DNA of 64,000 nt from Candidatus Jorgensenbacteria bacterium (GTDB taxonomy: Bacteria; Patescibacteriota; Minisyncoccia; UBA6257; GWB1-50-10). The stretch spans positions 44,710 to 108,709 of the forward strand of contig JAUSHK010000003.1 of the NCBI GenBank assembly GCA_030648515.1, given 5' to 3'. A program made the translations under genes and the position numbers. Numbering within the stretch: position 1 is the first letter of the stretch; the number at the start of each line of letters is the position of its first letter. Below, in pieces: positions 4,227 to 63,630 of the stretch. The notes beneath the pieces were generated by a model, which did no database searches, was not told where the DNA came from, and saw nothing but the letters and a program-made list of their open reading frames with translations.

Positions 4227-5372
4227 TTAATTTACTACTATTTCAATTAATTCGCCATCTACTGGTGCTATAAAAGGATCTAAGCGAGTATTGTTGCTTG
4301 GATTTGCTTGCAGGACAGACTCAGGTGTTCTTATCTCTGTAATATCAAACTGTTCTACCTGATAGAAGATGCTTGTTGTTGTCGCGGTATAAAGTCCCCT
4401 TCTCACTGTCATAACAGTAAAATAATTATCACCCTCTTCTAAAAATCTAGGAAAGCGCCCGCCAACAGTAGGGCCAATTTCAAATTGATACCTTGTTTGA
4501 CCTCCTTCATCGTAGTTATTTGCGGTTCCGCAAATGTTATTGAGTAATCCGCCAGAATAACTGACTTTCAAAAAACACCCGTTCCCAACTAAAAATACTG
4601 TTTGGGGCGCCCCTATAAAACCATTACTTGACTTTGGTGGGTGTTTGATAGAAAAAGTAATTTTTATTGGTTCTATGTCTATGCCCAATACTTTCATTTT
4701 AAACTTCGCTATGGTAAACGCTTCGGTGTCGTTATAAGCTGATGTTTTTTTAGGAGAATCTGGAGAAAGTGAGAGGATAACGGTAGGAATAGTTGGCGTA
4801 GTTACGGTTGGCCGTATCGTCACAACTGAACCCTGAACTGAGGGTGGAAGATTATCTGATACTTGTTGTGATGATATAACACTTTGTTGAGTCTGATGTT
4901 GCGCTAATGGTTGGCTTTCTGAATCATTTTTGTATTGAAGAGAAGTAATTTGTTGTCGTAACAGCCGAACTTGTTCTAAAAGCGCAGCAAGTTGCTGTTG
5001 TGTTGAATTTTGACGAGTAGGGACTATTGAAGTAGATCTAGTTTCACTAATGGCTTGGTTTTGAGCTTGATTTATTATTGTGCCAAGTTTTACATTCACA
5101 ACCGCTCTTGTTTTCGGTCCAAAATACCCAGCAGAAGGAATAATCCCTTCTCTTTCTTGAAAGTTCTTTACAGCAGTAAGTGTGAGAGAAAAGAAATTGC
5201 CCGTGATTGGACCGGAGTATATACCTTGATTAGTAAGAAATTCTTGAAGCTCGATCACGTCATCTCCCCGAGAACCGTAGGATAAATCACTCTCAAACGC
5301 CGCGAGTGTTAAAAACGGCGGTAGAAAAAATATAGTAGCCAAGAGGGTATATATAAGCGATTTTAGAATCAT
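4227..5372 (-). CDS. secreted peptidoglycan-binding (PG_binding_1-like) domain protein with Q-rich linker
   Basis: N-terminal signal/TM, GDDVIELQEFLTNQGIYSGPITGNF..AVKNFQ motif, low-complexity Q-rich middle. Confidence 0.5.
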   Translation of the reverse strand: MILKSLIYTLLATIFFLPPFLTLAAFESDLSYGSRGDDVIELQEFLTNQGIYSGPITGNFFSLTLTAVKNFQEREGIIPSAGYFGPKTRAVVNVKLGTIINQAQNQAISETRSTSIVPTRQNSTQQQLAALLEQVRLLRQQITSLQYKNDSESQPLAQHQTQQSVISSQQVSDNLPPSVQGSVVTIRPTVTTPTIPTVILSLSPDSPKKTSAYNDTEAFTIAKFKMKVLGIDIEPIKITFSIKHPPKSSNGFIGAPQTVFLVGNGCFLKVSYSGGLLNNICGTANNYDEGGQTRYQFEIGPTVGGRFPRFLEEGDNYFTVMTVRRGLYTATTTSIFYQVEQFDITEIRTPESVLQANPSNNTRLDPFIAPVDGELIEIVVN

Positions 5373-14470: not shown

Positions 14471-16150
14471 ATGCCGATTTCAAAATACATTGACGCGCAG
14501 CTTCTAGCACAGCGAAAAATCGCCGAGGAAAACGACGCGAAGCGTCGTGCTGATCAGCTTGGCCTACCCTATTTAGACCTCGTCTCAACGAAGGTCCCAA
14601 CTGAAATTGACGCTATGAAGCTTGTGCCAGAAGAAGACGCGAAGAAAGCACTTCTCGCCCCGCTTCAGCTTATCGGCAAAAAACTCGTGATAGCCGTTTT
14701 TAATCCTGCGGCGCCTACGGCAAAACAAATTCTTGATTCGCTCGCGCAAAATTACGAAGTGCACGCGGTTGTCGCCTCGCGAGCCGGCCTCGCTCACGCG
14801 TGGAGTTATTACCAGTATGTGCAAACCGAAGCAAAAGACATTGCCGGCAAAGTAGAAATTGACGAAACAAATCTGCAAGGCATCACCGCTTCAATTAAAA
14901 GTCTGGACGATGTCCGCGCCGCGATTCAAAATTTCAAAAGCCCGTACGTTTCCCAAATGCTTGAAATTATTTTGGGCGGCGCGCTTGCGCTCAAAGCGTC
15001 TGATATTCACCTTGAACCAAAGGAAGACACGGGGCTTCTCCGCCTTCGTGTTGACGGCATGCTTCATCCGGCATACGAATCATTTTCAAAAACGACCTAT
15101 CACTCAATAATCACGCGCATCAAACTGCTTTCAAACGTAAAATTAAATTTAACTGATCGTCCGCAGGACGGGCGCTTCACAATCGGTCTTAAAGACCGCG
15201 ATATTGAAATCCGTGCCTCACTCATTCCATCGGAATACGGCGAAACAGCGGTGCTCCGCCTCCTAGACCCGCTCTCGCTCAAGGTAAAGCTTGAGGAATT
15301 AGGATGGCGATCGGACGATCTCGAAATTGTAAGGAAAGAAATTGAGAAACCGAACGGGCTCATTTTAAACACCGGCCCCACCGGTTCCGGGAAAACAACG
15401 ACGCTTTACGCGTTTTTGAAACACGTCGTCACGCCTGAAATTAAAGTCATCACTGTTGAGGACCCGATTGAGTACCACTTAGATGGCGTGTCGCAAACAC
15501 AAGTAGACCCGGAAGCTGGCTATACGTTTGCTTCGGGCCTGCGGTCAATCCTACGGCAGGATCCTGACGTGATTCTCGTCGGCGAAATTCGCGACGCGGA
15601 AACCGCCGAGATTGCGATGAATGCGGCGCTCACGGGCCACATGGTATTTTCAACACTTCACACGAATGATGCCGTTGGCGCCATCCCCCGTCTTATAGAT
15701 CTCGGCGCAAAACCGCAGGTAATCGGCCCGGCAGTAAGTTTAATTATTGCCCAGCGTCTTGTGCGCGTTTTGTGCCCGCACTGCAAAGAAAAAATGGAAG
15801 TAAGCGCGGTGGCGAAGAAAAAAATTGAGGAGTTTCTCTCCTCATTGCCGAAGCGAGTGAACAGCGACGGGTATAAAACAATTACCATGGCGAAACCAAA
15901 GGGGTGTGAAAAATGCGGCGGCTTAGGATACCGCGGACGAACATCAATTTTTGAATTATTTGAAGTGACTGAAAATATAGAACAGGCAATTTATCAAAAT
16001 CCGAACGAGATTGAGCTTAAGGTATTGGCAAAGAAACAAGGGATGACTACAATGCAGGAAGATGGAGTGTTAAAAATACTCCAAGGGATTACAAGCAAGG
16101 AGGAGGTGGAGCGGGCAACGGGCCCGATTGAGTGGCTAGTCCTGAGCTAG
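14471..16150 (+). CDS. pilB: type IV pilus assembly / type II secretion ATPase PilB/GspE
   Basis: Walker A GPTGSGKTTT, Asp/His boxes, tetracysteine CPHC..CEKCGG zinc motif. Confidence 0.85.
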   Translation: MPISKYIDAQLLAQRKIAEENDAKRRADQLGLPYLDLVSTKVPTEIDAMKLVPEEDAKKALLAPLQLIGKKLVIAVFNPAAPTAKQILDSLAQNYEVHAVVASRAGLAHAWSYYQYVQTEAKDIAGKVEIDETNLQGITASIKSLDDVRAAIQNFKSPYVSQMLEIILGGALALKASDIHLEPKEDTGLLRLRVDGMLHPAYESFSKTTYHSIITRIKLLSNVKLNLTDRPQDGRFTIGLKDRDIEIRASLIPSEYGETAVLRLLDPLSLKVKLEELGWRSDDLEIVRKEIEKPNGLILNTGPTGSGKTTTLYAFLKHVVTPEIKVITVEDPIEYHLDGVSQTQVDPEAGYTFASGLRSILRQDPDVILVGEIRDAETAEIAMNAALTGHMVFSTLHTNDAVGAIPRLIDLGAKPQVIGPAVSLIIAQRLVRVLCPHCKEKMEVSAVAKKKIEEFLSSLPKRVNSDGYKTITMAKPKGCEKCGGLGYRGRTSIFELFEVTENIEQAIYQNPNEIELKVLAKKQGMTTMQEDGVLKILQGITSKEEVERATGPIEWLVLS

Positions 16151-25940: not shown

Positions 25941-27308
25941 CTACACCTTATTCAAGTTTTCTTTTATAAGAAGAATTTTTTGATTAAGGTTTGAATCTTG
26001 TGTCATCTCTTTTTGTATTTTTTCATACGCGTGAATAACTGTGGTGTGGTCCCGCTTCCCTAGTTTCTCGCCGATATGCGGGTACGACATCTTTAAGAAC
26101 TCACGCATAAGATACATCGCAATCTGTCGCGGTTCAACAACCTCCTGCTTTCTACCCTTGTTTATTAAATCATTTAATGGGATTTCAAAAAAATCAGAAA
26201 CAGATTTCAAGACGTCATTTGCTGTAATGTTTTTAGTGGAAACAGTGCTTGTCTCTTGGATAATTTCATCAACTTTTTTAATATCAATCTTTTTATTCTT
26301 GCATTGCTGGAAAAACGCGATTTTATTTAAGACCCCATCAAGCTCGCGTATGTTTTTCTGAACTTTAGCGGCAATGTGCTCAGTAACAGCATCCTCAATA
26401 TCAAGTCCTTGGTTCTGAATCTTTGTTTTAAGTATTGCAAGTCGCATCTCATAGTCCGGGTACGTGATATCGGCAATCATGCCCCCCTCAAAGCGGGATC
26501 GTAGGCGTTCTTCTAGTGTTGGAATCGCTGCCGGGGGCCTATCAGAGGAAAGAATAATCTGCTTGTTGTTTTCATGGAGGGCGTTAAAGGTGTGAAAGAA
26601 CTCAAGTTCTGTAGCCGGTTTCCCGCCGATAAATTGAATGTCGTCAATAATAAGGACGTCAACGTCGCGGTGTTTCTTCTTCATGTCCTCCATCCGCTTA
26701 TTCCGCACTGACCAGACGACATCATTGATGAATTTCTCGGAAGTTGTGTAAAGGACATTTACCTTCCCGCTGTATTTCTCGTGAATCGCGTTTCCAACAG
26801 CTTGCATAAGATGCGTTTTCCCGAGTCCGACGCCGCCGTAGATAAAGAGCGGGTTATACTTTTTTCCGACATCATTAACAACGGCTTGAGCCGCGGCATG
26901 GGCGAGTTCATTTGAGGACCCAATGATATATGAAGCAAATGTATATTTGGGGTTAAGGTTCGTTCGCGGGTCAACTCTTGATTCAACGAGCGGTAATTGC
27001 GGCTTTCCTAAATCCTCGGTCTTTTTAGCTTTCGCACATTGTATCTGATTTGGCGTACCGCTAATCACGGTGTAGTTTACTGATCGCACCGAAGTGTCAA
27101 AGTTTCTGAGGGACCCAAGGATAAGTTTGTGATACCGGTTTTTCACCCACTCTTTTGCAAAATTATTCGGCAGGCCGACAAGCGCTACGCCGTCCTTCTC
27201 ATTCTTTCCCATGAGCTGGCTGTTCTTAAGCCATGTAAGAAAGTTCGGCCGTGAAATTTGAACCTCAACTTCTCCTAAAACATTTTGCCAAAGCTCGTTG
27301 TGGTCCAT
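25941..27308 (-). CDS. dnaA: chromosomal replication initiator DnaA
   Basis: AAA+ Walker A GGVGLGKTHL, C-terminal DnaA-box binding HTH (IAMYLMRE..HTTV). Confidence 0.9.
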   Translation of the reverse strand: MDHNELWQNVLGEVEVQISRPNFLTWLKNSQLMGKNEKDGVALVGLPNNFAKEWVKNRYHKLILGSLRNFDTSVRSVNYTVISGTPNQIQCAKAKKTEDLGKPQLPLVESRVDPRTNLNPKYTFASYIIGSSNELAHAAAQAVVNDVGKKYNPLFIYGGVGLGKTHLMQAVGNAIHEKYSGKVNVLYTTSEKFINDVVWSVRNKRMEDMKKKHRDVDVLIIDDIQFIGGKPATELEFFHTFNALHENNKQIILSSDRPPAAIPTLEERLRSRFEGGMIADITYPDYEMRLAILKTKIQNQGLDIEDAVTEHIAAKVQKNIRELDGVLNKIAFFQQCKNKKIDIKKVDEIIQETSTVSTKNITANDVLKSVSDFFEIPLNDLINKGRKQEVVEPRQIAMYLMREFLKMSYPHIGEKLGKRDHTTVIHAYEKIQKEMTQDSNLNQKILLIKENLNKV

Positions 27309-27454
27309 AGGTATCGTAATGATAGATGTATTTACATACTTTACAACAGCGGCAAAACAGCAAAAAGTTACTTACCTGTGTATGATGTGTTGATAACTCA
27401 TAAAATGCAAGCGCATATTGATTTTTTAAGCGATTCGGGTAGAATATAAAGGAT

Positions 27455-27589
27455 ATGAGTAGGACTTATCAGCCAAAAAAGAGGAAAAGGGCGCGTACGC
27501 ACGGCTTTTTAGTGCGCGGGCGAAAGGCGAAGGGGCGCGATGTAATCAGACGGCGCAGACAGAAGGGTCGGCGCAAGCTCGCTGTTTAA
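27455..27589 (+). CDS. rpmH: 50S ribosomal protein L34
   Basis: Manually translated 44-aa [47 protein letters not shown]; absent from ORF track (below size cutoff). Confidence 0.8.
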
Positions 27590-27598
27590 GCCTGTCCC

Positions 27599-27871
27599 TT
27601 GGCCTATTCTATGCCACAGGCCGTCCTGGTTAAGAAATTTAGAAAGGGCTTTCAGAAAAAGCCATTATTTATTATTGCAGGGACGTCGGTTTCAAAAAAA
27701 GCCACCGATCGCAACCGCATAAGGCGTCGTATTCGGGTGATAATGACGCCAATAATGAAAGAACAGCGGAATGACTATGCGATTATTGTGAAACGCGGCG
27801 CGCTCGCGCTTTCCTATAAAAACCTTAAAGAAGAAATTTTAAAATTCATACACCATGATAGAACTGTATAA
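27599..27871 (+). CDS. rnpA: RNase P protein component
   Basis: basic 90-aa protein downstream of rpmH with RNR-motif region (DRNRIRRRIR). Confidence 0.75.
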   Translation: MAYSMPQAVLVKKFRKGFQKKPLFIIAGTSVSKKATDRNRIRRRIRVIMTPIMKEQRNDYAIIVKRGALALSYKNLKEEILKFIHHDRTV

Positions 27872-28550
27872 TTATTTTCTCTACCACCCGATTCTCTGGC
27901 TCCTTGTTGAAATTTATAACACTGTGGCTTTTCATGATTTGGGGATAGCAATCATTCTCCTTACTATTCTTGTGCGCGTGGTGCTTCTTCCCCTCTTTTA
28001 CAAGGGAGCGAAGGACCAAGTGATTATGCAGCGCCTACAGCCCAAGATAAAAGAGATTCAGGAAACGCATCGTGAAAACAAGGAACGGCAGGCGCGGGAG
28101 CTGATGAGTCTGTATCGCGAGCACCGCGTAAATCCCCTCTCGAGCATCCTCCTTGTTGCTATACAACTCCCCATTCTTATCGCGCTTTATCAAGTGTTTG
28201 GTAAGGAGGCGCTTTCTGCAACATTTGACAATCTCTCGTTTCTAAGCTTAATTAACCTAGGGGAAAAGAGCGTCGCTCTAGTAGCTATTGCGGCAATTCT
28301 CCAGTATATTCAAGGGAAACTAGCCCTTCCGAAGCAATCCCCGGCCGACGGACCGAATCCGGTAGCAGCGATTGGGAAAACGATGGTGTATGTGGGACCG
28401 CTCCTTACACTTGTTATTCTTGTAAATCTCCCGTCAGCACTCGGTCTCTATTGGGCGATTTCGACGGCCTTTTCAGTCATTCAGCAGATTTACATCAATA
28501 AACACGTACATATTCAAATAACACCAACAACAAACGAAAAAACCATATGA
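27855..28550 (+). CDS. yidC: membrane protein insertase YidC (short form)
   Basis: ILLTILVRVVLLPL..QRLQPKIKEIQ..SSILLVAIQLPILIALY typical YidC/Oxa1 core. Confidence 0.8.
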   Translation: MIELYNYFLYHPILWLLVEIYNTVAFHDLGIAIILLTILVRVVLLPLFYKGAKDQVIMQRLQPKIKEIQETHRENKERQARELMSLYREHRVNPLSSILLVAIQLPILIALYQVFGKEALSATFDNLSFLSLINLGEKSVALVAIAAILQYIQGKLALPKQSPADGPNPVAAIGKTMVYVGPLLTLVILVNLPSALGLYWAISTAFSVIQQIYINKHVHIQITPTTNEKTI

Positions 28551-28981
28551 ACGAAATTCATACAAAAACAAAAAAACTGCTTGACCTCATTGGGTTCGGA
28601 GGCGCCAATATAAGCATTGATGAAGAGCACCGGAAAATTTCAATTTTTGTGGACGACGAGATTATTAAAGAAAATATCTCGGTAATTCTGCAAACATTTG
28701 ATCATCTTTTAAACCTTATGCTCCGGAGGGAGGGCGACAGGATGTTTGTCGTTGATCTTAATAACTACCGCAAGGAACGCGAGCGGATTATTGCCGACCT
28801 TGCCCGCGCCGCGGCGCACAAGGCGATGCTTACCAAAGCGGATGTGGAGCTTCCTCCAATGAACGCGTACGAGCGCCGATTGGTGCATATGGAGATTGCA
28901 AGCCATCCGGAATTAAAAACCGAAAGCATTGGCGTTGGAAAAGACCGGCGAACAGTAATAAAACACATTGTAAATAGTTAA
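28547..28981 (+). CDS. jag: Jag/KhpB-like RNA-binding protein (KH + R3H)
   Basis: C-terminal R3H motif LPPMNAYERRLVHMEI; position after yidC. Confidence 0.7.
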   Translation: MNEIHTKTKKLLDLIGFGGANISIDEEHRKISIFVDDEIIKENISVILQTFDHLLNLMLRREGDRMFVVDLNNYRKERERIIADLARAAAHKAMLTKADVELPPMNAYERRLVHMEIASHPELKTESIGVGKDRRTVIKHIVNS

Positions 28982-30197: not shown

Positions 30198-31523
30198 TTA
30201 TTGAGCTAACTGAACATGGAAGTGTCGATCTGCGCCAGTTTCTCTGCATAACTTACCAACTTTACTAGGCGAAGCATAAGCTTTGAGATTATTAAAATCC
30301 TTATCATTTGCAACGCATAATTTAGTAACCCTTGGATTGTCAATAAGGTATTTACCGAGTACGTCCCACGCAAGCTCATTGCTTCTATTTTTAGGAACGA
30401 CGTCAAAAATTGGCTCGCCGGGGCCATGCGTGTTGTGCCCCTCCTCGGTTCCTCCGGTTACTTCAATTTGGCACGGGGGCCATCCACTAAGCGGTTTTGT
30501 CCCAACTTGTATTTCGCAATTTTGCGGGATTTCCTTAAGAAAAGTAATAACGCTATTAGGCATTCCACTAAGAGACGTGCAGTTAGTGGCTTTAGCGGTC
30601 GGACAATCTAGTTTGTTTATGGTAATATTTTTATTTACTTCTAGTTCAGCTCTTAAAGCTGCGTCCGAAGAATAACTTGCTTCCCCTTGTAAACTTGTAA
30701 TTTGTTGCCCTTCAATAATACAAGCGCTCAAATCATCCCGTAGCTGCACTGATTGCACAGATTGCTTCCCGTCATTATAGTCAGGCGGCTGATAAGCGTA
30801 TATGAGACACTTCGCGCTTTCCGAAGGTGTCACAGAGCCTTTTATAAAATACGGATAACTCCACACGATTGAACTTATGGGAATTGAAATATTATAGGTA
30901 GTCAGCCCAAGATAATAATACTTTTTATCCCCAGCGTTTGCGCTGAGCGTTATCTGTTTTGTGGTTACCGTCTTTCGGAATTGGCATCCGTCAACTTCCC
31001 CGGGGACTTCGCTTAAATACAGAATACTAGCTGGATCTCCGCAACTTTTACTCTCAGCCCCGAGCGAAAGGGATGACGACGCTACTGTTTTTTGCGGAGC
31101 GTACGGCTCTTTAAGCGTCACAAGTTCCGGATTGATGGTATTTAAGATGAGATAAGTGCCGAAGAGCAGGACAATCCCCCAAATGGCAGAGGTAATCATC
31201 TCTCTTCCAAGCCCGGCTTTTGTAACATCGCCTGTCGTCGCGGAAATATAAATGCCGCCGGCAATAATCATTCCGACCGCGAGAATGCCCGCTATCGCGA
31301 TGCCGAATTGGTAAATCTTTTTAATGTAATCAATGAACGATGTATCGCTGCTTACGCCAACAGTGCAGTCTTGCCCGAGTTGCCCGGCTGGACACGGAAA
31401 ATTAATGTCTACGATTTGCGATGTGGCAGACGGATCAGTTTTTTCTTGTCCGTATGCCAGCGCGCCAGACATTGTAAACATCACAGTGAATACAAGCAGA
31501 AGAAGAACTAAAAATTTTTTCAT
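30198..31523 (-). CDS. VirB2/TrbC-like pilin module fused to large Cys-containing extracellular domain
   Basis: signal peptide, helix-loop(SATTGD..GREM)-helix identical in architecture to paralogs at 53657..55426, then ~310-aa domain with 10 Cys. Confidence 0.45.
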   Translation of the reverse strand: MKKFLVLLLLVFTVMFTMSGALAYGQEKTDPSATSQIVDINFPCPAGQLGQDCTVGVSSDTSFIDYIKKIYQFGIAIAGILAVGMIIAGGIYISATTGDVTKAGLGREMITSAIWGIVLLFGTYLILNTINPELVTLKEPYAPQKTVASSSLSLGAESKSCGDPASILYLSEVPGEVDGCQFRKTVTTKQITLSANAGDKKYYYLGLTTYNISIPISSIVWSYPYFIKGSVTPSESAKCLIYAYQPPDYNDGKQSVQSVQLRDDLSACIIEGQQITSLQGEASYSSDAALRAELEVNKNITINKLDCPTAKATNCTSLSGMPNSVITFLKEIPQNCEIQVGTKPLSGWPPCQIEVTGGTEEGHNTHGPGEPIFDVVPKNRSNELAWDVLGKYLIDNPRVTKLCVANDKDFNNLKAYASPSKVGKLCRETGADRHFHVQLAQ

Positions 31524-35006: not shown

Positions 35007-35489
35007 TTAGTAATCTATGCGCTTTGCCACAACTTTTTCTCCGGTTATCCGCGTAACGACCTGAAGTCGCTCCCCCGAGGATTCCTTGCTCTCGGTAAAT
35101 ATTTTTCCCGTTGCGATATTCATAGTAATAGATTTCAACTTTTCCTGGATGCTCATCGTGTTCCGCACTGCCTTAATCCGCTCAATATCGGAAACGTCAA
35201 CGTCTTTTGATATTCTCTGCCACGTGTAGACGCGCGGCTGCCACATATATGAGAGTCCAGAGAGAAGTGCCTGCGTGGCGTCTTGCCCATTGATTTTTAT
35301 AAACGCGAGCGCCGCGGCGGCTCCGCCCACGATAATCGTAATCAAAATCCAGAAAAACATGTTGAAAATGTTATATGAGATAACACTAATAAGGAACGCG
35401 CCCGCGATAAAGAAAAACTGCCGGAGCGTAAGTGGTCCGATGATTTTTGCCTTTTCTTCAATGAATTGTGGGACTTGGAATGTTGCCAT
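35007..35489 (-). CDS. 2-TM membrane protein (possible PrgI/VirB3-like)
   Basis: 160 aa, two adjacent TM helices near N-terminus then soluble tail. Confidence 0.35.
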   Translation of the reverse strand: MATFQVPQFIEEKAKIIGPLTLRQFFFIAGAFLISVISYNIFNMFFWILITIIVGGAAAALAFIKINGQDATQALLSGLSYMWQPRVYTWQRISKDVDVSDIERIKAVRNTMSIQEKLKSITMNIATGKIFTESKESSGERLQVVTRITGEKVVAKRIDY

Positions 35490-40520: not shown

Positions 40521-41330
40521 TTAAAGTTTGCTAAGTGTATTTTGAAATGACGCGAGTAACTGTTCCTCATTATTTACCGCATCCGAAAGTCCTTGAAGCG
40601 CGGCAAGCGGTTTTAAACTATCTTGATTGCCATCAAGGACAGCTTTTCCTAGCTCGTAGCGCTCGTTCCACGCGTTTATAAAATCAAGATGAAACGAGGC
40701 GAGATTAGGCGGCGCGGTAATCGCAAGAAGATCAGTGATTTGGTCAGAAGTCGTAGTTAGATAGCCCTGAAGCTTTTCCGCGCTCTGGTTTATAACAGCA
40801 TCAGCGACCATCGCTAAGTATTGGTCATCCTGTCCGTGAAAATTTTTTATGTACGTGTTTTGGATATTTTTAAGATACGCGAGCGCGGCTTCCTTACTGA
40901 AATCGTTTGAGATTTTTATATCTTTTGTTTCGTAGTGTTTTATTGCAATACCACGAGAAAGTTCGTCGCTTATAATATTGCCCAGCGTCGCCTCATTCGG
41001 CACGGTGATTGGAGAGCTTGTGCCCACGCCAAACTTATTTGCATTAAAAATTTCCTGCTGATAGCGCTGAATAACCCGCTCGGTAATACTATTAGGATTT
41101 TGCTGTACCGCGGAATCGGTGTTGGTCGCGACCACGCTTGAAGTCGCAAAACGTCCAGAATCAACTCCGGACCGGATGATTTCAAAAAGCGACGCAACGT
41201 TCCCGGTTTTGGACTTTGAATTTACAATCCAGAATGAAATCCCTGCTCCGATAAGAACAATAAAAATTGCAATGACAAACCGCCTGTTTTGAAACATTTT
41301 TGTCCTCTTATTATACACTATCGCGGGCAA
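40521..41330 (-). CDS. bitopic membrane protein (candidate VirB8-like scaffold)
   Basis: single TM near N-terminus, ~220-aa extracytoplasmic domain; overlaps rsmA 3' end by 20 nt. Confidence 0.35.
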   Translation of the reverse strand: MPAIVYNKRTKMFQNRRFVIAIFIVLIGAGISFWIVNSKSKTGNVASLFEIIRSGVDSGRFATSSVVATNTDSAVQQNPNSITERVIQRYQQEIFNANKFGVGTSSPITVPNEATLGNIISDELSRGIAIKHYETKDIKISNDFSKEAALAYLKNIQNTYIKNFHGQDDQYLAMVADAVINQSAEKLQGYLTTTSDQITDLLAITAPPNLASFHLDFINAWNERYELGKAVLDGNQDSLKPLAALQGLSDAVNNEEQLLASFQNTLSKL

Positions 41331-42093
41331 GATTTTTAATAATTTGGACGCCTAAATCTTGCGGGCGCGAGTGAGGATCAACCCCGTACTGTTTAAGCAG
41401 CCCCAAAAGAGTTTCTTGAGGAATTTCGAGGGTCTTTAAATTGTTTAAAACCGTCTTTCGTGGCTGCTTAAAAAGCGCGCGGATGAACGGGTAATACGAT
41501 TCAGTAATAATGCTTTTATCTTTGGGGAGCATGACAAGTTTAATGATGGCCGAATCAACTTTTGGCTGAGGCGAGAAATCGCTTCGCGGAATTATTTCAA
41601 TGATTTTGGGTTCCGCCCACACTTGCACGCTCGCCGCGAGAAGATTCATCTTGGGAGGATGCGCCGCAAGGCGTTCAGCGACCTCTTTTTGAACGGTAAG
41701 CACTATAACGCTCGGTTTTTTAGGAAGCTCGCCGAGTATCCGCAGGAGATGCCCGGTAATGTAATACGGAATGTTCCCCACTAGTTTGTAGTGAGTAGTT
41801 TGTAGTGAGTAGTCGGAGATAATTTTAGGCAGTACTTTGAGAGCATCCCCGCAAACAATCTCAATATTCCGATTTTTTTGAAACCTCTTTTTTAGTTCTG
41901 CGGCAAGTCTCATATCCTTTTCTACCCCCATAATTCGTACTTCATAATTCATAATTCTCTCCGTGAGCTCTCCGTGACCGGGCCCGATTTCAACAACAAT
42001 ATCGCCTGGTTGGATATCGAGCGACTCAACGATATGCCTGATTTTTTCAGGGTTTTTAAGAAAGTTTTGACCGTAGCGTTTTTGCGCGCGCAT
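41311..42093 (-). CDS. rsmA: 16S rRNA (adenine1518/1519-N6)-dimethyltransferase RsmA/KsgA
   Basis: QNFL, VVEIGPGHGELT SAM motif, NIPYYI; contains 14-nt tandem duplication. Confidence 0.85.
   Translation of the reverse strand: MRAQKRYGQNFLKNPEKIRHIVESLDIQPGDIVVEIGPGHGELTERIMNYEVRIMGVEKDMRLAAELKKRFQKNRNIEIVCGDALKVLPKIISDYSLQTTHYKLVGNIPYYITGHLLRILGELPKKPSVIVLTVQKEVAERLAAHPPKMNLLAASVQVWAEPKIIEIIPRSDFSPQPKVDSAIIKLVMLPKDKSIITESYYPFIRALFKQPRKTVLNNLKTLEIPQETLLGLLKQYGVDPHSRPQDLGVQIIKNLARDSV
41782..41809. repeat. perfect 14-nt tandem duplication inside rsmA
   Basis: tagtttgtagtgag x2; 13-mer ttgtagtgagtag also at 6078..6090. Confidence 0.6.
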
Positions 42094-63543: not shown

Positions 63544-63615
63544 CGGTCCGTAGCTCAACGGTAGAGCAATCGTCTTATACACGATTGGTTGTAGGTTCGA
63601 ATCCTACCGGACCGA
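63544..63615 (+). tRNA. tRNA with anticodon TAT (Ile2/UAU-type)
   Basis: 72-nt perfect cloverleaf by hand: acceptor CGGTCCG/CGGACCG, D-loop AACGGTA, anticodon stem ATCGT/ACGAT, loop CTTATAC, T-loop TTCGAAT, discriminator A. Confidence 0.7.
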
Positions 63616-63630
63616 CTGTTAGGTACTATT

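Follow-up and report, generated by a model that had tools for sequence, protein, structure and literature searches.

A predicted LAS peptidase carried on a VirB2-like pilin hairpin in a type IV secretion operon of Candidatus Jorgensenbacteria

Secretion systems of type IV (T4SSs) are near-universal in the phylum Patescibacteria, and the one species tested cannot grow epibiotically without its own. A survey from 2025, covering 3,035 Patescibacteria genomes, found that these T4SSs are related to the monoderm MPF-FATA class, that they often adjoin dnaA and come with arrays of VirB2-like pilins, and that most genomes with VirB2 have no recognisable VirB1; pilin-enzyme fusions go unmentioned in it (PMC12102498). 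A 2024 perspective described the role of the Patescibacteria T4SS as "completely unknown" (PMC11665869). In Southlakia epibionticum the T4SS cluster and the pilin array are essential (PMC10633639), as is SEML1_0006, which lies beside virB4 and encodes two lysozyme-like domains and a cysteine proteinase domain (PMC10633639). SEML1_0007, in which ECOD places a Hedgehog/DD-peptidase domain at residues 951-1105, is likewise essential in transposon sequencing (Tn-seq) (Wang et al. 2023, Cell; PMC10633639, Tables S1/S2). Here we describe an open reading frame (ORF), encoding 441 aa in a genome of the Patescibacteria lineage Candidatus Jorgensenbacteria, that joins a VirB2-like pilin hairpin to a C-terminal domain with a predicted LAS zinc-peptidase fold, and that lies in a T4SS operon. 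It was found in a window of 64,000 nucleotides (assembly GCA_030648515.1, contig JAUSHK010000003.1, positions 44,710 to 108,709 of the forward strand), to which all nucleotide positions below refer.

We consider it likely that the protein is a T4SS-associated peptidoglycan hydrolase, a wall opener of the VirB1, PrgK or TraG kind, anchored by its pilin module. As such it would be a candidate for the missing wall-opening activity of the Patescibacteria T4SS, found some 1 kb downstream of virB4 in about half of the assessable loci, and would be relevant to the way in which ultrasmall epibionts get through cell walls. Its sequence is identical to an NCBI entry from a Candidatus Jorgensenbacteria metagenome-assembled genome (MAG) that is named "pilin", and many entries of that name from the candidate phyla radiation (CPR) would in fact be enzymes. 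A preliminary description of this DNA gave the ORF at 30198..31523 and counted ten Cys in a C-terminal part of 310 residues; these, and the sequence strings it quoted, are all present. The full Cys count is 12, of which 10 fall C-terminal to residue 131.

Residues 135-441 were searched against 1.84 billion representative proteins, which returned 160 relatives, and GTDB species-representative genomes were scanned at the DNA level with a degenerate pattern for TGGTExGHxxHG, which returned at least 119 matching stretches. We inspected 80 of these as loci of ~8 kb each, a length that limits synteny statistics; 75 encode the C-terminal domain, and the remaining 5 are chance matches in non-CPR genomes. 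Nearly all of the 75 loci listed are labelled as Patescibacteria lineages, and at least 52 of them carry the pilin module in the same ORF, many others being cut by the end of the locus. The fusion, an architecture called unusual for the VirB2 family in the preliminary description, is indeed unusual for classical VirB2, but as a combination of pilin and LAS domain it is not rare. Pilin-LAS ORFs also occur in MAGs labelled "uncultured Bdellovibrionales" or "Pseudobdellovibrionaceae" from binchicken third-party annotation (TPA) assemblies (L009, L014, L017, L018, L026, L029, L045, L060, L068, L070 and L076); either these labels cannot be relied on or the fusion is found beyond Patescibacteria as well.

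The N-terminal third of the protein has the build of a T4SS pilin: a signal peptide, which is also found in four small pilins encoded elsewhere in the window, and then a pair of hydrophobic helices with a short polar loop between them. Hydropathy gives hydrophobic segments at residues 1-25 (the signal peptide), 69-98 and 108-131, and AlphaFold2 (AF2) places the helices of the hairpin at residues 63-95 and 100-130 with predicted local distance difference test (pLDDT) scores of 79-89; model confidence is low over residues 25-62. The proposal that residues ~60-130 resemble the four small ORFs is borne out by three comparisons. The protein aligns with the 136-aa paralog at 34% identity over 80 aa (blastp against the four-sequence subject set, E 7e-9), a hidden Markov model (HMM) of the four paralogs scores it at 24.4 bits, and a profile of the fused-type module matches the four paralogs by profile-profile comparison (hhalign probability 97.4%, E 1.3e-11). 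The helix-loop-helix arrangement described earlier therefore stands; the S-x-G-D loop does not, as the loop of this protein reads A-T-T-G-D.

Two of the four small pilins also reach the Pfam TrbC/VirB2 model. The fused protein by itself stays under the PF18895 (T4SS_pilin) gathering score (18.6 against 26.6 bits, E 0.002, residues 67-122), whereas among 60 homologues of its C-terminal domain 45 have a PF18895 match at E <= 0.01. At 441 aa with two extra domains, it lies outside the ~100-155 aa of small stand-alone pilins. Comparisons with solved VirB2-type pilins (8dfu, Foldseek E 3.1; 8cue, HMM E 9) are too weak to use. On these sequence comparisons the hairpin is a divergent relative of T4SS_pilin that falls short of the family threshold and departs from it in size and in not standing alone. 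A type IV (PilA-like) pilin identity was ruled out, the class III signal peptide motif being absent.

A further feature sets the fused modules apart. Helix 2 ends in a conserved LILNTINPEL, with T129, N131 and P132 invariant in 21 homologues, and a strict [TS][IVL]NP occurs in 24 of 52 fused ORFs against 0 of 24 small stand-alone pilins of the same loci listed. Enzyme-fused pilin modules end in x-I-N-P-x-L (here residues 126-135, ILNTINPELV, 31119..31148). This INPxL motif repeats after each of the four pilin modules of P0030, another pilin-fused protein, is also seen among GTDB loci L009-L088, and could serve as a membrane-exit cap or mark a processing site.

Other proteins carry different enzymes on the same hairpin. 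P0030 joins its four tandem pilin modules to an SLT lytic transglycosylase, P0043 has a pilin module fused to Peptidase_M15_4, and P0034 and P0037 combine the module with a classical HxxGxxxD...HxH LAS domain; P0091 (1318 aa) has its LAS domain ahead of the pilin module, with fn3 repeats behind that module. The pilin hairpin is a recurring vehicle for wall hydrolases of more than one kind (LAS subtypes, M15_4, SLT).

VirB2-type pilins have both termini on the outside of the filament, as seen in F and T pilus structures. This allows an alternative in which the hairpin polymerises as a minor pilus subunit at the tip, at the base or scattered along the filament, and the peptidase breaches the host's peptidoglycan so that contact, uptake or effector delivery can follow. 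In favour of this, the hairpin and the small pilins of the same genome are truly homologous, a C-terminal domain could be displayed from a filament whose termini face outward, several wall hydrolases share the module, and CPR epibionts need the T4SS and its pilin array for growth on the host (PMC10633639, PMC12857230). However, a 310-aa appendage is hard to accommodate in helical pilin packing except at the ends, INPxL, an ending absent from small pilins, points to a specialised anchor rather than to a subunit that polymerises, and the host of Jorgensenbacteria could lack peptidoglycan. We regard a pilus-borne, host-directed enzyme as unlikely. A more specific form of the idea, in which the T4SS loads the peptidase into or onto the growing pilus via the hairpin, possibly after processing at INPxL, so that the pilus carries a peptidoglycan "drill" to the host, is speculative and on balance doubtful; if true, it would explain the presence of pilins in monoderm T4SSs, the usual absence of VirB1 and the essentiality of the system for epibiotic growth.

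Another line of evidence for a T4SS-associated wall hydrolase is genomic position. The gene belongs to a minus-strand operon with gaps of at most 32 bp between ORFs, in the order four genes, PrgI/VirB3, TraC-like piece, VirB4, 103-aa, 226-aa, the fused gene and 389-aa, and VirB4 ends 1044 bp upstream of the start codon of the fused gene. Homologues at 31-37% identity in Candidatus Brennerbacteria and two other metagenomic lineages sit in the same order among genes of the same sizes: ksgA, four genes, PrgI, TraC-like, VirB4, ~110 aa, ~225 aa, the homologue, ~390 aa, jag-yidC and dnaA-dnaN. The slot of the 683-aa gene is occupied in the Brennerbacteria locus by a gene of 584-598 aa that matches TrbL_3 (VirB6-like), and likewise in the other syntenic loci. 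VirB4 is split into two genes in the window and in all three syntenic loci examined. The gene is thus encoded in, and syntenic with, a T4SS gene cluster. Wherever VirB4 is visible among the GTDB loci (21 of 21), it lies upstream on the strand of the peptidase ORF, its end 0.94-3.8 kb from that ORF and mostly at ~1 kb. Of the 28 listed loci that reach at least 3.5 kb upstream, 14 have VirB4 there, so about half of the family holds a fixed T4SS position and the rest lies elsewhere. P0038 (L008 10001-11404), one of the syntenic homologues at 31-37% identity, fills the slot of the fused gene with the same pilin and middle modules and a different C-terminal LAS subtype (WPPTVVHASLCHNIGTCADV...NLHVEL). 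What the slot conserves is therefore a LAS peptidase and not one sequence: within the LAS clan, one catalytic domain has replaced another.

The operon converges on jag-yidC, beside dnaA and dnaN. Its flanks are ksgA (RrnaAD) on one side and jag/yidC, dnaA and dnaN on the other (25941..28981 and 41311..42093), which places it beside the replication origin, as for many Patescibacteria (PMC12102498). Such a location invites a second alternative, that of a housekeeping wall endopeptidase for growth or division, as MepA is in E. coli, with the hairpin as a mere anchor and the proximity to T4SS genes explained by co-location at oriC. The operon adjoins dnaA/dnaN and a class A penicillin-binding protein (PBP), the nearest structure is a housekeeping endopeptidase, and VirB4 is missing upstream in half of the members whose flank is long enough. 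The position about 1 kb downstream of virB4 on the same strand wherever VirB4 is visible, maintained down to 31-37% identity, speaks against co-location, as do the nature of the anchor, which in most members is specifically a T4SS pilin module, and the position of the S. epibionticum counterpart within an essential T4SS cluster. We consider a purely housekeeping role quite improbable.

A further line of evidence concerns the enzyme itself. Across the 160 relatives the 310-aa part separates into two modules, a middle one (query 20-150) and a terminal one (query ~145-307); the Cys-rich part fused to the hairpin, as first described, is real, but it is two domains and not one. The middle module occurs in a minority of relatives, and the terminal one in many proteins of ~280-310 aa. 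AF2 models were built for the full-length protein (pLDDT 71) and for residues 135-441 from 80 sequences (pLDDT 78), the latter giving a pLDDT of 84-95 over the terminal domain. With the full model, Foldseek returned MepA as the sole PDB hits at E < 0.1 (probability 0.99, E 7e-3), a Hedgehog/DD-peptidase fold.

LAS zinc peptidases carry the signature H-x(n)-D plus H-x-H. The terminal domain has H366-x7-D374 and H434-F-H436, and in alignments C307, C315, G358, E360, H363, H366 and D374 are invariant or nearly so, as are H434 and H436; in 60 homologues H363, H366 and D374 never vary, and conservation of H434 and H436 is at least 90%. The corresponding motifs of E. coli K-12 MepA, taken as reference, are GGH110ASH113QTGLD120 and H209MH211V. 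In a local hhalign the segment GGTEEG-HNTHGPGEPIFDV, which includes H363, H366 and D374, falls on MepA GGRFNGGHASHQTGLD-VDI; this alignment to a single sequence covers the 18-residue metal motif alone (probability 3%, E 0.014) and serves as a register check, not as proof of homology. The global hhalign against the single MepA sequence gave a meaningless alignment. A profile of the domain matches a set of 15 pilin-fused sequences with the classical M15 motif HxxGxxxD...HxH (hhalign 92%, E 5.8e-7), one of which (P0043) carries Peptidase_M15_4 (PF13539). We conclude from the predicted structure and motifs that residues ~286-441 probably form a zinc peptidase domain of the LAS clan, from a subfamily that Pfam lacks and that is structurally nearest to MepA. 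A Hint/Hedgehog autoprocessing protein was rejected, the match being limited to the fold of the N-terminal signalling domain.

The proposal of the preliminary description that the protein is an adhesin or pilus-tip protein, which would now require the C-terminal part to bind a host surface ligand through a non-catalytic LAS fold like that of the Hedgehog signalling domain, is very improbable: the middle beta domain could be a binding module, but the complete set of proposed metal and catalytic residues (H..D and HxH intact) would be expected of an enzyme and superfluous in a binder, the match that clearly leads all others is an active endopeptidase, and SLT and M15_4 domains fused to the same module elsewhere point to wall cleavage as the common theme. 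That description had itself named a known periplasmic enzyme fold as the outcome that would count against it, and structure prediction with Foldseek gave such a fold, that of periplasmic MepA.

The middle domain has C180, Y202-Y203, W221, P224-Y225, C239, A243-Y244 and C268 invariant and C161 nearly so, includes two conserved Cys pairs, and is confined to a subset of the family, occurring in 3 of the 75 GTDB loci listed. Every example seen comes after a pilin module, with varying C-terminal partners.

Several observations weigh against the proposal of a pilin-anchored, T4SS-associated LAS hydrolase. The spacing between the metal-site H and D is 7 residues, against 6 in MepA and M15 and one residue beyond the classical H-x(3-6)-D. 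The whole protein has no C-terminal match in Pfam or NCBIfam (E <= 1) or in the PDB (phmmer). Profile searches of the PDB with the 80-sequence alignment and with a 31-sequence domain alignment gave no match for the C-terminal part, and a Pfam scan of the 31 isolated domain sequences at E <= 10 gave scattered single chance matches only, M74 not being matched. Because curated sequence models miss the domain, to which their sole link is the indirect one through the pilin-fused set that includes P0043, its assignment rests on predicted structure and motifs; it appears to be a member of the LAS structural clan by fold and motifs and not by such models. For the middle domain (~155-285), the PDB and viral libraries searched contain no structural neighbour of significance, and a Foldseek search against viral structures gave nothing significant. 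Finally, about half of the assessable members are not beside VirB4, so the family is not exclusively T4SS-linked.

Weighing these points, we still favour a T4SS-associated wall hydrolase and propose the following mechanism. Once the signal peptide is removed, the hairpin would be inserted with both ends outside and its short K/R-containing loop on the cytoplasmic side, following VirB2 topology. With both ends of the hairpin outside, the Cys-rich middle and LAS domains would lie in the wall zone, where disulfides may stabilise them. The earlier suggestion that the large part lies outside the cytoplasmic membrane agrees with the VirB2 topology, the signal peptide and the K/R-containing inter-helix loop. 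Zinc would be held by H366, D374 and H436, with H434 and H363 catalytic or auxiliary as in MepA, and the domain would cut peptide stems or cross-links of peptidoglycan. Since its anchor is a pilin module, the enzyme would probably be recruited to the VirB3/VirB4/VirB6 platform that handles the small pilins, so that wall cutting would be limited to the spot where a channel or pilus must pass. It may in this way be a functional stand-in for VirB1, or for PrgK/TraG, with its own wall, the host wall or both as substrate. The organism builds peptidoglycan, given the class A PBP, the Mur ligase and the PG_binding_1 protein encoded in the window.

Coordinates of the protein, its parts and the surrounding genes are collected in Table 1. 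Within the protein, short motifs start at residues 73 (FGIAIAG), 97 (TGDV), 363 (HNTHG), 373 (FDVV) and 434 (HFHV).

Table 1. The fused gene, its predicted domains and motifs, and related genes of the window.
Feature	Position	Strand	Basis or remark
Whole ORF, 441 aa, ATG start; predicted pilin-anchored LAS peptidase	30198..31523	-	ORF call
Predicted Sec signal peptide, residues 1-24, MKKFLVLLLLVFTVMFTMSGALAY	31452..31523	-	hydropathy; AF2 helix 2-24
Predicted extracytoplasmic N-terminal stretch, residues 25-62	31338..31451	-	invariant F42-P-C44-P45, plus C53
VirB2/T4SS_pilin-like hairpin, residues 63-131; helices joined by loop TTGDVTKAGLGRE	31131..31337	-	
Middle domain, small all-beta, residues 155-285	30669..31061	-	conservation, AF2
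Predicted LAS (Hedgehog/DD-peptidase fold) zinc-peptidase domain, MepA-like, residues 286-441; three Cys pairs	30201..30668	-	
First metal-site motif, residues 363-374, HNTHGPGEPIFD	30402..30437	-	aligns with MepA H110, H113, D120
HFH, residues 434-436, HxH of LAS enzymes	30216..30224	-	MepA counterpart H209-M-H211
Four operon genes, 322, 683, 659 and 269 aa	35491..41330	-	no Pfam match
PrgI / VirB3-like protein	35007..35489	-	
Separate N-terminal (TraC-like) VirB4 part, 213 aa	34353..34994	-	
VirB4-like conjugal-transfer ATPase, 585 aa	32567..34324	-	CD1110 family, 362.8 bits
Membrane protein between virB4 and the fused gene, 103 aa	32252..32563	-	size, position conserved
Secreted protein directly upstream of the fused gene, 226 aa	31539..32219	-	weak Ig-like hints (BiPBP_C, Big_7); size, position conserved
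Membrane-anchored protein, last operon gene, 389 aa	29012..30181	-	size, position conserved
Four small VirB2-like pilins, 147, 122, 155 and 136 aa	53657..55426	-	all above PF18895 gathering score

Elsewhere, the window encodes a 381-aa PG_binding_1 protein, possibly another wall enzyme, and, as a component of type IV pili, a PilB-like T2SSE ATPase (4227..5372 and 14471..16150). It also has a tRNA-Ile with anticodon TAT (UAU) at 63544..63616. Such a tRNA is uncommon in bacteria, in which AUA is usually read by a lysidine-modified CAU tRNA.

The closest described enzyme is MepA, the E. coli penicillin-insensitive murein DD/LD-endopeptidase (MEROPS M74, PDB 1tzp and 1u10), a LAS metallopeptidase that shares with the protein described here the G-H-x-x-H...D and H-x-H-V motifs; both would be extracytoplasmic and both are Cys-rich. 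MepA, however, is soluble and periplasmic, with neither a membrane anchor nor a link to a secretion system, whereas the Jorgensenbacteria protein adds a beta domain and a pilin hairpin. The two have no sequence-model similarity, Pfam M74 staying unmatched even at E 10. With the VirB2/TrbC/T4SS_pilin families (PF18895, PF04956), which include the essential arrays of Patescibacteria, the protein has in common the signal peptide, a pair of hydrophobic helices, the short polar loop with G-D and a place in a T4SS operon, but it is 441 aa long instead of ~100-155 and has INPxL at the end of helix 2 and a putative enzyme domain. Full-text literature searches on PF18895 and on CPR pilins and peptidases turned up no account of this architecture. 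The protein would combine a novel anchor for a T4SS wall hydrolase with a LAS domain that is a sequence orphan.

PrgK (pCF10), TraG (pIP501), TcpG (pCW3) and VirB1 share with the protein an N-terminal membrane anchor followed by one or more extracytoplasmic wall-degrading domains, and the presumed common role is local opening of the wall for the apparatus. They use SLT/lysozyme-like, CHAP/NlpC or LytM (M23) domains behind a plain transmembrane helix, in contrast to the predicted MepA-like LAS domain and VirB2-like hairpin seen here. No Pfam or NCBIfam match in the protein indicates an SLT/lysozyme-like, CHAP or LytM domain homologous to VirB1, TrsG or CD419. Having a LAS fold in their place, the protein would work like the VirB1/PrgK/TraG class without being homologous to it. 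SEML1_0007 of S. epibionticum ML1, compared by table annotation and position, adjoins virB4 in a CPR T4SS cluster beside dnaA and is much longer (1113 aa versus 441 aa). Its essentiality lends indirect support, by analogy, to a T4SS role for the Jorgensenbacteria protein.

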